This document shows positions 6,001 through 9,000 of a stretch of 25,261 bases of DNA, in pieces; within the stretch, counting starts at the first letter, position 1, and every line of letters begins with the position of its first letter. Origin of the DNA: Pseudomonadota bacterium (GTDB lineage: Bacteria > Desulfobacterota > Desulfobacteria > Desulfobacterales > RPRI01). The stretch is from NCBI GenBank assembly GCA_043825875.1, contig JBDRRF010000088.1, positions 1 to 25,261 on the forward strand, given 5' to 3'. The position numbers are program-made.

Positions 6001-9000
6001 TCAGATTTCGAGTTCAGTCGGTAAAGACACAAGGCAATCTGGACATATATGATAAAGATCATGCTATGGAAAAAAATATTTTTGCAAATGTTATCTGGTT
6101 GAACTTCGACGAAAGTAAAGAATTATGGTCCGGCAGCCGTCAAATCTATTTAAGCGACTTTAATACTATCCCATTAGAAAACATATCAGGCGTTGAAGGC
6201 ACATTGCTTCTGAGGGTGCCGGTTGATCCAGTGACAGTTGAATTTAATTTAAAGAATTATGCCGGCAGATATGAAGTAAATGGCGTCCGTTTCGAGATCA
6301 AGCATCTTAGTCCAAAAAAGGTTGAGCTTTTGATACACGGCAACGATGAAAACTATATGGGGATGGATGCGCTGGTAAAAGGTGCTTGGTTGCGAACATT
6401 AGGACTGGGGCATTCTTTCACGAAGACTTCGCAGGATCAGATAGTTATTGAAGAACATCAGATCAGCGTCAACTTTCCACAATCCGTAGAAGCAATCAAA
6501 CTTTATTTTTGTGCAGGATATAATTCGGTTGAGTCCGAAATCCTTATTCGGCCGGATAAGGTGTTTACAAAAAGCCTGGATTAGAAAAGACAGGGTTTAA
6601 TCTAACCTGTAAGCTCAGGCAAGTTTATGAGCAATTGGAAATTATCGCATTTATGGAAATCAGTGAAAGCCCTTGATGCACCTGACTTCTTTGTTATCCT
6701 AAGGAGATGATATGGAACAACAATCGGAATTGAAGGACTATATTCACACCGATTTGAATAAGGAAAACAATGTTATTGCAGGACACTATGTCCTGACGGA
6801 AGAAACCCGCCTCCCTTTTCACGACCGTGAATTCTTCTACTTTTTGGGGGAAGGCGTACTCGACAACTCATGCTGTGGATTTGGAAATTTGTCTTATGCT
6901 ATTGTGCCTGGTTTCATAGTTGATTGGAAATATAGAAAGTCCGCAGACGGTTTCCCAGTTTCCAGGGTTGAGCCTATCAGAGACAAGGCTCTGCAAAATG
7001 AGATTATATTCCTGATTGAACAAAAAGATACGGTCTGCCAGGTATCCTTTCTATAAAAAGCAATACGCCAATTAAACCACGTTGTGAAAAGAGAGTAATG
7101 ACTATTTCCGATTTTAGAACTAAACCTGTATTCATAAAGCGGCTTCTTGTAACAATTTGCTTAGTCGCTGTATATCGATTGGGCTTGTTGTTGCCTCTTC
7201 CCTTTTTAGATGCCGAAGCCTTAAAAGGTCAATTTGGTATTTTCACCTCACACAGTACTACAGATGGGCACCTATCAATATTCTTGCTTGGCATCATGCC
7301 CTATGTTTCGGCCTATATCCTTGTAGAACTAACTTCCCTTTGCATCCCCTTTTTAAAAAAACTTCGGTCTGGGGATTTTAAAGGCCGTTTAAAATTAAAA
7401 CGTATTTCTTTGGTTCTGGCGTTGGGCTTGGCTACCTATCAGGCAACCAGTATAGTATCAAGCCTTAATAGTATGGATTTATCGGATGGCAAATCGATTT
7501 TAAACATTTCTACTACGTTTGAACACGTAATTTTGGTTTGCGTGATGGTGGGTAGCTTCTACCTGCTAGTAGCAATATGCGAAATGATTTCCAGGTTCGG
7601 CATCGGCCACGGGATTTCGATTATCATATTGAGCGGCATTTGCGGAGGTTTTATTGGTCGGGTTCCCATGTATTTTAAACAGTTAGAATATCATGATGTT
7701 TTCTCTTATTTTATTGCATTCATTGTGTTTTGCGCATTAATAGCTTTTACATTTGTTTTATTGAAAAATAAAATCCCTATTCCCTGCTATCACGAAAAAG
7801 ATAATAAAATAGTTGGTTATTTTCAGCTTAATCAATCCCCTTCCTCTATGGTTGCATTGACCTATGCTGCTTCTATTGTTATGCTGCCGCCAACCCTATC
7901 GCATTTTTTTGGTAACGGAAGCAGTATAGCAAACTATCTTAACCCAGGCTCCATTGGATATAATTTAATCTCAATTATTTGTGTGTTCATGTTCAGCTTC
8001 CTATTTGGATGGGCATTTCTTCATCCGCGCAGAAGAATAAGTAAAATGCGGGAAAGAGGTTGGCATATCGCGGATATGGGAACAACCGCTGAAAGTTTTA
8101 TACTTAAAAGGATGTTTATTTACAACCTGCCATGGACAATCTTTTTATGTATAATGGTAGTAGTACCCTCAACACTGATATCCGTTGCCAATGTTCCCTT
8201 TTATCTTGGTGGTAGCTCCATACCAATAATCGTTGCAGTAAGCCTTGACCTAATTGGCAGTTTCAGATTTTATAGCAATGGCATTAATAAACCGGTAAAG
8301 ATTGCCGAATTTCATGACATCTATGATGCCAATATGATCCAAAACCACATGAAAGCCGCAGGTATAAAAAGTTATTTGCAGTGCTACCATCACAGATTGT
8401 TACGCTATTTTTTTGGCCCTCATCTTGATATGGGCCTTATCATAGATGCTAGGGACAAAGAAAAAGCGCAAACTTTAATTAAAGATTTTTATAATGGACT
8501 CGGATTGTGCCAAAAATCTTGATATAATTGATGATTAACTGCTGAGTCATTTCCAGCATCTCAGCCTCGACATTTGCAGGAGAATATTAATGGACATTTT
8601 AGCATTTATACCACTTATCATTTACATTTTAATATGTATCGGGCTGGGAGCAATACCGGGTATTATTGCAAAGCGAAAACACCGAAATAGAGCTATGTGG
8701 TGGGTTGCAGGAGCATTTGGATTTCCTATTGCCCTTATATGTATCCTATGTTTTCGGGACCTCGATCAAATCCCGGAAGATAAAAAGGTATCATCTAAAC
8801 TGAAAGAAAAAATAATTTTAGTAGCCATTTTAGTGCTTTGGGTAGTAATGATCTTATCGAGAATTAAAGCTGTAAATTAAAAACTGTCAATTGAACAATG
8901 AACACGACCAAACTATAAAATGGCAGCCTGATTATTGGCCTAATCCTTCAATCAGAAAACATAAAACATGGAGGTAATACTTTGCTAATCAGGAAATCTG

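Follow-up and report, generated by a model that had tools for sequence, protein, structure and literature searches.

A horizontally mobile SecY-like protein with a fused DUF2007/PII-like tail predicted to dock in its own channel mouth

SecY/Sec61 is the universal protein-conducting channel. To our knowledge, all described SecY/Sec61 systems are opened by an external partner (the ribosome, SecA/SecA2 or Sec63/BiP) and sealed by a luminal plug. The SecY2 of the Gram-positive SecA2/SecY2/Asp1-3 system is a second, divergent and presumably specialized SecY that stands beside a housekeeping copy, and we know of no SecY2 with a fused DUF2007 domain. Among the PII regulators, GlnK plugs the AmtB channel with its T-loop. 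Literature searches returned no description of a SecY with a DUF2007 or PII-like tail; the second-SecY papers among the matches listed concerned SecY2/SecA2, plastids and E. coli alleles. In its available part, a preprint (bioRxiv 10.1101/202358) covers SecA2/SecY2 and canonical SecY divergence. The DUF2007 domain has no known function in the available portions of the papers that name it, where it is mentioned in passing only.

Here we analyzed a stretch of 25,261 nucleotides (contig JBDRRF010000088.1, positions 1 to 25,261; hereafter the window) from a bacterium of the Desulfobacterales. The window encodes a SecY-like protein whose C-terminal tail is predicted to lie in the mouth of its own channel, a design that appears to be rare, with no published description in the literature searched.

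A second, divergent SecY and its family

The SecY-like gene (g03261) starts with an ATG codon and encodes 474 amino acids in an intact reading frame (Table 1). Residues 60-385 match the Pfam SecY model (2.5e-39; 135.9 bits against a gathering score of 32.2), which places the protein in the SecY/Sec61-alpha superfamily (PF00344), and residues 401-464 match DUF2007 (E 0.0024) with 18.4 bits, under the cut-off of 25.7. The genome also carries a canonical secY (g01112, contig C38) in the operon S8-L6-L18-S5-L30-L15-secY-map-IF1-S13-S11; its product scores 413.8 bits, compared with 137.1 for the SecY-like protein, and the two are 29% identical over 405 columns. The SecY-like gene lies outside this spc ribosomal operon, with no uL15 upstream and with neighbors that a Pfam scan found to be unrelated to that operon. 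One SecE match and one SecA_DEAD match were found in the genome, which is 99.8% complete, and the SecA_DEAD profile thus detected no second SecA. An earlier note on this DNA had described a second, divergent SecY besides that of the ribosomal operon and the absence of a second SecA; both are confirmed, the former with identical Pfam figures.

No Rfam family reached its gathering score within the window, and the predicted promoters (46 versus 50.2 in shuffled sequence) and terminators (16 versus 9.8) stood at or close to the numbers given by shuffling. We considered whether the gene lies in a low-GC island and rejected the idea because the local 35.9% GC is unremarkable against a genome mean of 39.1% (sd 2.8% per 10 kb). 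Within the window, the GC outlier is the CRISPR-Cas half, a compositionally separate block (50% versus 36%).

Protein searches delimited a family of 69 cluster representatives (P0002-P0070) at 182-783 bits and 29-77% identity, the next match being an ordinary SecY at 132 bits. This drop in score bears out the view of a separate family of divergent SecYs; PF09413 is precomputed on 22 of its 69 representatives. The family was previously sized at 66 clusters, and although its existence stands, the superfamily around it is far wider, with 723 representatives retrieved by the tail profile at E ≤ 1e-3. Ten wider representatives were looked up, and the sole one with a name was called ‘SecD’. Similarly, a single related locus had been reported in genome contigs, whereas a tail-specific pattern scan found 11, in addition to 60 in metagenome contigs.

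Phylogenetic analysis separated 39 tail-bearing SecY-like proteins from 19 canonical SecYs (SH-aLRT 100) and recovered the window's own clade with a support of 95. Members come from many lineages and fall into three architectures. In 7 of the 52 tail-profile matches scanned (806-881 aa), the SecY core and the tail are preceded by a SecDF_P1_head domain; this architecture occurs in 10 clusters, and its clade is distant from that of the window, with long branches. We propose a superfamily of tail-bearing SecYs, recognized by a SecY core, a Glu in TM2b, losses in the plug, C4 tip and C5, and an H-R-x-L-x-x-F-x-x-P tail loop, all of which are found in the present protein. Its hosts are Thermodesulfobacteriota and other diderm lineages. 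The scope of ‘Gram-negative anaerobes’ given earlier is too narrow, as look-alike clusters are labelled Acidobacteriota and Myxococcota, labels that serve as leads only.

Table 1. Features of the SecY-like locus, in window coordinates
Feature	Coordinates	Strand	Basis or remark
Left flank ORF, 114 aa, cytoplasmic, not part of the cassette	6712..7056	+	90% identical in congener G013
Strain-specific cassette, 2,383 bp (SecY-like gene, 96-aa ORF, 128-aa ORF)	7062..9444	+	Comparison with congener G013
SecY-like gene with fused DUF2007/PII-like tail	7098..8522	+	ORF, Pfam, AF2, Foldseek; stop codon 8520-8522
Channel domain, aa 1-392, ten TM helices	7098..8273	+	Secondary structure of model; alignments
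Plug (TM2a) position, aa 47-59	7236..7274	+	Alignment block; pLDDT
Glu77 codon, TM2b	7326..7328	+	Column counts; predicted tail contact (interface 76-77)
C4 beta-hairpin, aa 225-245	7770..7832	+	Alignment; strands 225-232, 238-245
C5 loop, aa 319-331	8052..8090	+	Alignments
Tail domain, aa 396-474, beta-alpha-beta-beta-alpha-beta, DUF2007/PII-like type	8283..8519	+	Sub-threshold Pfam match, tail profile, predicted fold
Tail loop, aa 428-444	8379..8429	+	Invariance; predicted docking interface
96-aa ORF, three hydrophobic segments, in cassette	8590..8880	+	No family match; no relative beside other members
128-aa ORF, N-terminal signal-peptide-like segment (by eye), in cassette	8982..9368	+	No family match
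Right flank, AI-2E family transporter gene	9493..10524	-	95% identical in congener G013

The channel domain and predicted docking of the tail

The structural case is predicted as a whole. The AF2 model of the entire protein (pLDDT 88.8, pTM 0.88) contains helices at residues 10-30, 67-91, 94-125, 140-167, 172-195, 201-223, 252-271, 286-308, 331-363 and 374-393. Its channel domain is alignable end to end with the canonical SecY of the genome and with solved SecYs, and Foldseek matched the model to SecY chains at E 1.6e-17, with ten TM helices in two pseudo-symmetric halves. The model superposed best on SecA-bound, substrate-engaged SecY (8y9z and 8ya3; TM by target 0.83-0.84, rmsd 3.0-3.4) and more poorly on resting SecYEG (5aww; TM 0.69, rmsd 5.7), a possible likeness to the open state.

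Residues were compared across the family by aligning 55 tail-bearing members with 27 canonical SecYs. The GIMPY, GIG-x-GIS and D384 motifs are conserved, and the pore ring stays hydrophobic except at one position of six (the I278 equivalent), which is Thr, Ser, Gly, Ala or Pro. Relative to its canonical counterpart, the plug region of the family has 8-12 fewer residues and lacks the FSGGA-type motif; in the model, residues 48-56 are disordered and form the sole stretch with a pLDDT below 50. The C4 tip is 8-10 residues shorter, with loss of the basic RRxxGRK-type stretch. In C5, the P/G/G of PGIRPG is present in 27/27 canonical SecYs and in 0/55 family members, which have a deletion of 1-3 residues and carry a family-specific RGW (G321, W322) in its place. 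As judged by alignment, none of the 55 members examined retains the plug motif, the C4 tip or the C5 PGIRPG. The TM2 position is Glu in 55/55 members, compared with Gln in 16, Met in 10 and Ser in 1 of the canonical proteins, and the canonical NP-K-E/D stretch is replaced by HP-R-R-R. On canonical SecY, SecA and the ribosome dock at the tip of the C4 hairpin and at the C5 loop with PGIRPG, whose Arg is the equivalent of E. coli R357.

The model of the tail (pLDDT 83) was most similar to the DUF2007 prototype 2HFV (TM-score 0.70 by query, probability 0.98), a likeness in fold although the Foldseek E value was 0.28. Weak fold matches were also obtained with GlnK, SbtB, PstA and ACT domains (Foldseek E 0.05-0.4). 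No Foldseek match of the tail reached E ≤ 1e-3, and a sequence comparison with solved structures gave none, the best hit being a chitinase at E 0.078, apparently by chance. Resemblance to PII, at E 0.07-0.4, may serve as a working analogy, and we do not place the tail as a member of PII/GlnB. The tail profile retrieved bona fide DUF2007 proteins that pass PF09413 (e.g., P0233 at 5.9e-16), some of them with a closely similar loop motif. In an alignment of 34 members, A403 and E404 are invariant, as are H432, R433, L435, F438 and P441 of the tail loop; the C-terminal block reported earlier as invariant holds for these residues, whereas K401, D407 and G440 reach 90% conservation or more.

Docking of the tail (396-474) onto the channel (1-392) was predicted with scores of 0.67, 0.69 and 0.59, compared with 0.00 for the best of three controls. 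The mark for this score is reached by 116/157 solved complexes and 2/215 mismatched pairs, and reaching it counts as support for binding, not as proof. At least 72% of the contacts agreed between runs, and the partner pLDDT was at least 71. The predicted interface includes residues 69-70, 73-74, 76-77, 173-174, 239-245, 319-322 and 376-384 on the channel side and 428-444 on the tail side, with the lowest errors for the pairs of 380, 383 and 384 with 431 and of 377 with 432. In these models, the tail loop is predicted to lie inside the cytoplasmic funnel and to reach down to V70, I173 and I377 of the pore ring, and C4 residues 239-245 are predicted to pack against tail helix 1 through contacts with 409-416. 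The invariant R433 is absent from the list of confident contacts. Family-specific conserved channel positions were enriched in the interface (12/28 versus 41/364 elsewhere; odds ratio 5.9, Fisher p 6e-5), a result not fully independent of the docking model because the same family alignment lies behind both; positions conserved across all SecYs were unenriched (5/26, p 0.27). Together with the deletion of the docking loops in 55/55 members, the predicted binding (0.67 versus 0.00) supports a tail seated at the motor-docking face, in line with the earlier proposal that it replaces a motor-docking or gating function.

A docked tail might also mark an auto-inhibited alternative SecY isoform, one that would use the housekeeping SecE/SecG and either SecA or ribosomes after the tail has moved aside, for instance in certain growth conditions. 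The overall SecY geometry is conserved, the single secE and single secA of the window's genome are available for sharing, and all six genomes checked that carry the SecY-like gene keep one canonical SecY alongside it. However, the docking determinants, namely PGIRPG with its R357-equivalent Arg and the basic C4 tip, are deleted in 55/55 members and not just covered, and we regard such an isoform as quite unlikely.

Selection, mobility and gene neighborhood

In three close pairs, the SecY-like gene gave dN/dS values of 0.149-0.335, indicating purifying selection; in the pair G000-G002, the values were 0.153 for the channel and 0.124 for the tail. The earlier note had allowed for a decaying paralogue. 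A duplicate in decay or without function, or one that only titrates Sec partners as a decoy, would fit the faster long-range evolution of the gene (29-42% identity versus 64-74% for canonical SecY between the same genomes) and its absence from nearly all relatives: a tail-bearing SecY was found in 0/16 congeners and in 1/400 other sampled genomes of the phylum. Yet the frame is intact, dN/dS is 0.15-0.34 in both domains, and dozens of positions are invariant over 34-55 members from many lineages and three architectures. These data indicate a functional gene and make decay or a decoy role highly improbable.

The synonymous divergence of the SecY-like gene was 0.51-0.97 in three genome pairs, whereas that of canonical secY in the same pairs was saturated in two (pS 0.78-0.83) and 2.16 in the third. 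In the congener G013, 495 unrelated bp occupy the site of the cassette between flanks that are 90-95% identical, and the SecY-like gene is absent both at this site and genome-wide. The contrast in synonymous divergence, the absence of the cassette from the congener and the sparse distribution show that the gene is horizontally mobile. This sparse and mobile occurrence suggests an accessory role confined to particular niches among anaerobic sediment and groundwater bacteria.

To survey the neighborhood, the window and 71 related loci were compared; 619 ORFs were clustered and 90 immediate neighbors were Pfam-scanned. No ORF cluster accompanies the gene as a conserved partner or cargo across these loci, in agreement with the earlier finding of no conserved partner genes. 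The next most widespread ORF cluster occurs at 12 loci, all from a deep Zn-ribbon clade. A MadB-like ATPase considered as a neighbor in the deep clade scored 121 against a cut-off of 475, and no functional claim is made for it.

The channel had previously been pictured as a dedicated export route for the adjoining lipoproteins, counted as four genes, and small membrane proteins. By eye, lipobox-like N-termini are found on five co-directional upstream ORFs (1175, 2404, 3416, 4235 and 5700), and an ORF with a signal peptide and one with three TM segments lie downstream, both inside the same strain-specific cassette. Moreover, a small ORF with 2-4 TM segments is located directly downstream in six window-clade sources (the window, L003, L004, L014, L020 and L037) of 32 examined, 27 of which have a downstream ORF, but these recurring ORFs share no detectable homology with one another. 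Lipoproteins normally travel by the housekeeping Sec and Lol routes, which counts against them as cargo. Furthermore, the window's neighbors have no relatives among the ORFs of the 71 loci even at phmmer E ≤ 1, and three of the five lipoprotein genes persist, at 91-94% identity, in G013, which has no family member. Dedicated export of the neighbors is therefore very unlikely. Of the earlier picture of an accessory export channel, the accessory family, its functionality and the placement of the tail at the docking face are retained, and the lipoprotein cargo is not.

Loss of the plug also raises the alternative that the channel no longer handles proteins and serves as a signal-gated conduit, through which ions, small solutes or short peptides would pass; in one version, it would be a membrane-permeabilizing stress or defense effector acting upon tail release. 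Plug-deleted SecY leaks ions, one pore-ring position here is small or polar, and the tail fold resembles PII-like regulators, of which GlnK and SbtB control transporters. A sparse, horizontally mobile, strain-specific distribution would suit such a conduit, as would the defense or mobile-element genes nearby (CRISPR-Cas and ORF6N in the window; WapI-like, PIN, KilA-N, Schlafen/AlbA_2 and macro-domain genes at other loci). However, locus contexts across the family are heterogeneous and by Pfam mostly metabolic or housekeeping, and the CRISPR-Cas genes belong to the compositionally separate half of the window. In addition, purifying selection has maintained the SecY architecture and the pore ring at five of its six positions, and the SecD P1 head fusion in a sister clade points to polypeptides. 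We consider the conduit unlikely.

Proposed mechanism and comparison with known systems

The explanation we favor, and to which we would give about an even chance, is that the gene encodes a working, horizontally mobile, SecY-derived accessory channel whose own tail closes and controls it from within. The protein keeps the ten-helix core with a largely hydrophobic pore ring and has lost PGIRPG in C5, the tip of C4 and the periplasmic plug, three features of a SecA- or ribosome-driven, plug-sealed translocon. The PII-like (DUF2007) domain fused after TM10 would dock on the remodeled cytoplasmic face, and its invariant H-R-x-L-x-x-F-x-x-P loop would enter the funnel and extend to the pore ring, acting as a cytoplasmic plug or gate. 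The docked tail would also shut out SecA and the ribosome. A ligand of the PII-like fold, or a partner protein, may provide the release signal that opens the channel. The transported species would most likely be an unfolded polypeptide or a peptide, because sister clades fuse the channel plus tail to the substrate-binding SecD P1 head; these fusions suggest that the channel still handles polypeptides. Because the 71 loci share no conserved partner, cargo or energy source, we infer protein transport from the fusions in other clades. What we say of a plug or gate, of the release signal, of the substrate and of the energy supply is likewise proposed, whereas the gene, its family, the deletions, the selection, the mobility and the predicted docking with its controls are results of this analysis.

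In a bolder and distinctly speculative form, this would be the first signal-gated Sec-type channel, working without SecA, the ribosome or a periplasmic plug. Sealing and opening would be the task of its own PII-like domain, which would act from the cytoplasmic side and answer to a metabolite or nucleotide, and specific unfolded proteins or peptides would pass without a dedicated ATPase. In this lineage, the gene travels on a 2.4-kb cassette whose two other products, one a small membrane protein and the other small and secreted, may be its partner and its client. If the favored explanation is true, it would add a third way to gate SecY, in which a tethered cytoplasmic domain at the pore ring takes over from both plug and docking loops; it would also place DUF2007 in a functional context for the first time and provide a compact natural model for how much SecY conduction and sealing require. 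The question is experimentally reachable, since one carrier is labelled as a strain with a DSM number, Desulfogranum marinum DSM 2058.

Compared with housekeeping SecY (PF00344; TIGR00967; 5abb, 5aww and 8y9z), the SecY-like protein shares the ten-TM fold, the GIMPY, GIG-x-GIS and D384 motifs and the hydrophobic character of 5/6 pore-ring positions. It scores 119.6 against the TIGR00967 cut-off of 253.6 and thus falls outside this equivalog. It further differs in the missing plug motif, C4 tip and PGIRPG, the Glu of TM2, the small or polar sixth pore-ring residue and the extra C-terminal domain, and its gene is sparse, horizontally mobile and outside the ribosomal operon. With SecY2, it has in common that both are second, divergent and presumably specialized SecYs. 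Nevertheless, it scores 67.4 against 249.6 with TIGR02920 and 67.5 against 353 with NF009082, and the window's genome has no dedicated SecA2. Pfam found no Asp, linked glycosyltransferase or serine-rich-repeat genes among the 26 window ORFs; a lone GT2 gene (10921-12444) lies outside the cassette and is kept in congeners without the SecY-like gene. These results uphold the earlier claim of an accessory SecY family distinct from the Gram-positive SecY2.

The PII regulators, GlnK on AmtB and SbtB on SbtA, offer a parallel in that a small beta-alpha-beta-beta-alpha-beta domain would insert a loop into the cytoplasmic mouth of a channel. Here, in contrast, the domain is covalently fused, its matches to these regulators are weak, and DUF2007 is not GlnB proper. 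Relative to DUF2007 proteins (PF09413, 2HFV), which are stand-alone or membrane-anchored, the tail scores below the family cut-off and has a loop far more conserved than in the family at large. Finally, the predicted position of the tail, in the cytoplasmic funnel and at the C4/C5 face, is the one taken on SecY by the SecA two-helix finger or the ribosome, but the occupant would here be an intramolecular domain of 79 residues with no ATPase.

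A second, tail-bearing SecY and its family

The SecY-like gene of the window encodes a protein that matches the Pfam SecY model over aa 60-385 (2.5e-39, 135.9 bits) and the DUF2007 model over aa 401-464 (E 0.0024); the latter score, 18.4 bits, falls short of the 25.7 cut-off. The host genome comprises 4.77 Mb in 118 contigs, is 99.8% complete, and contains the window as its entire contig C88 (25,261 bp). Canonical secY is located on contig C38, within an S8-L6-L18-S5-L30-L15-secY-map-IF1-S13-S11 cluster, and scores 413.8 bits versus 137.1 for the SecY-like gene; the two proteins are 29% identical in an alignment that spans TM1-TM10. 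One SecA, one SecE, and one stand-alone DUF2007 gene (on contig C66) were found in this genome. The ORF, the Pfam scores, and the copy on C38 thus confirm that a second SecY with a DUF2007-like tail exists beside canonical secY, as the earlier note had proposed.

The same note described a separate family of 66 clusters with one related locus in genome contigs. The family holds, but it is far larger than claimed. In a word-indexed search, 69 cluster representatives (29-77% identity, 182-783 bits) stood clear of ordinary SecYs, which followed at ≤132 bits. Related loci were sought with patterns from an alignment of the C-terminus, so that canonical SecYs would not swamp the results; this tail-specific scan gave 11 loci in genome contigs, rather than one, and 60 in metagenome contigs. 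All taxon-named loci among the 11 belong to Thermodesulfobacteriota or 'delta proteobacteria', and named carriers are Smithella, Desulfosarcina, Desulfogranum marinum DSM 2058, Desulfocapsaceae, and Desulfurivibrionaceae. Look-alike clusters in the ESM Atlas with SecY and DUF2007 are labelled Acidobacteriota and Myxococcota, which we treat as leads only.

A tail-only profile compared with 1.84 billion representatives matched 723 proteins at E≤1e-3 and 90 at E≤1e-10. Fifty-two of the 150 matches listed were scanned with Pfam: 29 contained SecY, 22 contained DUF2007 alone, frequently at the N-terminus (both such proteins inspected have C-terminal hydrophobic segments), and one was an unrelated low-complexity protein. 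In seven of the 29 SecY-containing matches (806-881 aa), a SecDF P1-head domain precedes SecY. This architecture is found in 10 clusters, in the order TM1, SecD-like periplasmic P1 head, TM2, then channel and tail, with a Pro-rich linker after TM2 seen in cluster representative P0243. The SecDs nearest to the SecD-like part include one named Haliangium sp.

In a maximum-likelihood tree of 58 rows, 39 tail-bearing SecY-likes were split from 19 canonical SecYs with an SH-aLRT of 100. Each of three clades formed a single group: that of the window (95), a deep one whose members carry a four-Cys zinc-ribbon-like extension at the N-terminus (99), and the SecD-P1 fusions (99); relations between clades are unsure because several rows sit on long branches.

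Coordinates of the features described in the text (window positions unless a locus or protein is named)
Feature	Location	Strand or setting	Description
SecY-like gene	7098-8522	+	ATG-initiated ORF, 474 aa
SecY-like cassette	7062-9444		2,383 bp; SecY-like gene, 96-aa 3-TM ORF, 128-aa ORF
G013 slot ORF	L089 (G013:C124) 1006-1500	reverse	103-codon open frame, ~95 aa from first Met, hydrophobic segments
Deep-clade gene set	L009 5160-10438; also L011, L053, L056, L057, L060	co-directional	AAA+ ATPase, 397-aa, ~464-aa, SecY-like
SecD-P1 fusions	P0243, P0213, P0238, P0257, P0264, P0198, P0239		806-881 aa proteins
Type I-E CRISPR-Cas	13382-23768 and 23853-25261	complete	cas3, cse1, cse2, cas7, cas5, cas6e, cas1, cas2, then array
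Two non-cas genes	21190-22547	between cas6e and cas1	165-aa PF05635, 285-aa Bro-N
Apparent dispersed repeat, MITE-like	2087-2370, 4154-4238, 5472-5613	intergenic	74-89% identity
ORF6N (KilA-N-like) protein	721-1059		domain match

Selection, mobility, and gene neighbourhoods

The SecY-like gene is under purifying selection. Its dN/dS was 0.149, 0.227, and 0.335 in three close pairs; by domain, the pair of comparison genomes G000-G002 gave 0.153 for the channel and 0.124 for the tail. Decay of the gene, or a role as a decoy, is contradicted by this selection and by the conservation of the protein, and is scarcely credible. Each of five further carrier genomes had just two SecY matches, one of them canonical and the other tail-bearing.

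The gene is rare: by the tail profile, none of 16 congeners (63-99% complete) carried it, and one of 400 further genomes sampled across the phylum did. In pairs drawn from three genomes (that of the window and MAGs of Smithella and Desulfosarcina), the paralogue showed a synonymous divergence of 0.51-0.97, whereas canonical secY reached 2.16 (pS 0.71) in one pair and saturation (pS 0.78-0.83) in the other two. The paralogue was therefore exchanged more recently than its hosts diverged. Moreover, the canonical SecY of comparison genome G005 ranks second in closeness (72%), yet the paralogue there is only 29% identical. On these sequence comparisons, paralogue relationships do not track those of the hosts.

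The congener G013 revealed a presence/absence polymorphism of the SecY-like cassette. Its flanks are 90% identical to window 6687-7061 and 95% identical to window 9445-10600, and the 495-bp slot between them, which contains a small membrane ORF of unrelated sequence, looks like a variable position between conserved flanks. GC content around the SecY-like gene is 35.9%, near the genome mean of 39.1% (sd 2.8%), and the outlier part of the contig is the CRISPR-Cas half. This type I-E locus was probably acquired, because its GC content is 50% versus 39% for the genome. Its array has 29-nt repeats with a 61-nt period and runs to the contig end, and minus-strand ORFs at 24014-25260 lie within it and are likely spurious. 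The 165-aa protein encoded between cas6e and cas1 is of the 23S-rRNA-intervening-sequence or bAvd-like four-helix type (2.8e-27), and PF05635 proteins occur close to the SecY-like gene at loci L009 and L059 too. Short intergenic repeats of the window occur on many contigs of its own genome and of the congeners G013 and G016, and partial copies of the ORF6N gene exist at other sites of the genome (contig C35 matches window 801-1032) and in relatives.

The earlier note had counted four lipoprotein genes beside the channel gene and suggested them as its cargo. Lipoprotein-like ORFs are indeed present upstream, with five lipobox-like N-termini by eye (1175, 2404, 3416, 4235, and 5700). Comparison does not support the cargo proposal: no neighbour of the SecY-like gene is conserved at other family loci, and in G013, which lacks the channel, three of the five lipoprotein genes are still present, so that we consider these lipoproteins very improbable as cargo. 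The two small cassette ORFs, the longer of which starts with a sequence resembling a signal peptide, are possible clients; neither has relatives at other family loci.

No partner gene is conserved throughout the family. At several loci of the deep zinc-ribbon clade, the SecY-like gene is preceded at a distance of 21-33 nt by a co-directional gene for a protein of ~464 aa, which has TM segments at its N-terminus and a weak TPR match at its C-terminus; genes for an AAA+ ATPase and a 397-aa protein often come before that gene. These three represent the only recurrent candidate module, which is absent from the window's clade. The ATPase resembles MadB below cut-off, and the 397-aa protein has no family assignment. 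Among 32 sources surveyed, 27 had a downstream ORF; six of these, all in the clade of the window (window, L003, L004, L014, L020, L037), have a small 2-4-TM ORF directly downstream, and no homology was detectable among the six ORFs. At locus L031, a 140-aa ORF like stand-alone DUF2007 follows the tail-bearing SecY gene after 82 nt. At L023 only, the co-directional gene immediately upstream (491-1609) encodes a membrane protein of 373 aa that matches the signal peptidase S26 domain (4.8e-42).

An altered channel and its predicted docking with the tail

To compare the channels, 55 family members were aligned with 27 canonical SecYs, using E. coli numbering via the E. coli SecY chains. The plug region (TM1-TM2 loop), the sealing element of the resting channel, is 8-12 residues shorter in the family and lacks the FSGGA-type motif; in the model of the SecY-like protein, pLDDT falls below 50 solely at residues 48-56. 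The C4 hairpin and the C5 loop are the docking sites of SecA and the ribosome. The C4 tip is 8-10 residues shorter in the family, without the basic RRxxGRK-type stretch, and the C5 PGIRPG motif, including the R357-equivalent Arg, is absent in 55/55 members (27/27 canonical SecYs have its Pro and its two Gly). Deletion of the docking motifs themselves fits poorly with an auto-inhibited isoform that would go on using SecA or ribosomes, and we regard such an isoform as quite unlikely. After TM8, the canonical NP-K-E/D becomes HP-R-R-R, a charge reversal, and one TM2b position is Glu in 55/55 members (Gln in 16, Met in 10, and Ser in 1 of the canonical SecYs). The pore ring keeps Ile/Leu/Val at 5/6 positions, and the I278 equivalent is Thr, Ser, Gly, Ala, or Pro. 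The missing plug and widened ring, together with the patchy, mobile distribution and defence-like neighbours at some loci, would suit a gated pathway for ions or small solutes, or else an effector that permeabilises the membrane; the contexts are mostly housekeeping, and we judge this reading unlikely.

Conservation within the protein is highest in the tail (aa 396-474): 34 members share A403, E404, H432, R433, L435, F438, and P441 without exception, and 17 diverse tails likewise share the loop residues H, R, L, Y, F, and P. Folded alone, it was modelled as beta-alpha-beta-beta-alpha-beta (pLDDT 83), with the best TM-score (0.70) to the DUF2007 prototype 2HFV. Matches to GlnK, SbtB, PstA, and ACT domains were weak (E 0.05-0.4), and no structural match reached 1e-3. 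The full-length model (pLDDT 88.8, pTM 0.88) best fitted SecA-bound, substrate-engaged SecY (8y9z, 8ya3; TM by target 0.83-0.84, rmsd 3.0-3.4 Å) and fitted resting SecYEG 5aww more poorly (TM 0.69, 5.7 Å), a likeness that, coming from this one model, is a hint only.

Docking of the channel (1-392) with the tail scored 0.67, 0.69, and 0.59, and the best of three controls scored 0.00; the docking mark is attained by 116/157 solved complexes and 2/215 mismatched pairs. The runs shared at least 72% of contacts, with partner pLDDT of at least 71. The model supports, but does not show, binding of the tail to the channel. In the confidently predicted interface, tail loop 428-444 contacts TM10 (376-384, including I377 and D384), TM2b (69-70, 73-74, and 76-77, including V70 and E77), and TM5 (170-174, including I173), touching three pore-ring equivalents, and tail helix 1 (408-420) contacts the C4 hairpin (239-245); residues 303-322, with R313 and the RGW of C5, are also included. 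Channel positions conserved in the family and divergent from canonical SecYs are enriched there (12/28 versus 41/364 others; odds ratio 5.9, Fisher p 6e-5), whereas positions conserved across all SecYs are not (5/26, p 0.27). This enrichment is only partly independent because the same alignment informed the model.

Proposed working and relation to known systems

The SecY-like protein is an intact SecY derivative, selected and mobile, without plug or docking loops, and in the docking prediction its fused domain fills the cytoplasmic funnel. Whether it is, overall, an accessory channel closed and controlled by its own tail seems to us evenly balanced. In such a channel, the tail loop would form a cytoplasmic plug or gate, and, once docked, would keep SecA and the ribosome out. 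Its cargo would probably be unfolded polypeptide, because the ten fusion clusters join TM1, a SecD P1 head, and TM2 to channel and tail; the P1 head is the periplasmic substrate-binding domain of SecDF.

In the searchable literature, whose coverage leaves subscription journals outside, no published description of a tail-bearing SecY was found. NCBIfam scores set the SecY-like protein apart from housekeeping SecY (119.6 bits; cut-off 253.6) and also from SecY2 (67 bits; cut-offs 250 and 353). The PII-like fold of the tail, weakly matched as it is, suggests that a ligand or partner may release it from its docked position, by analogy with the regulators GlnK on AmtB and SbtB on SbtA.
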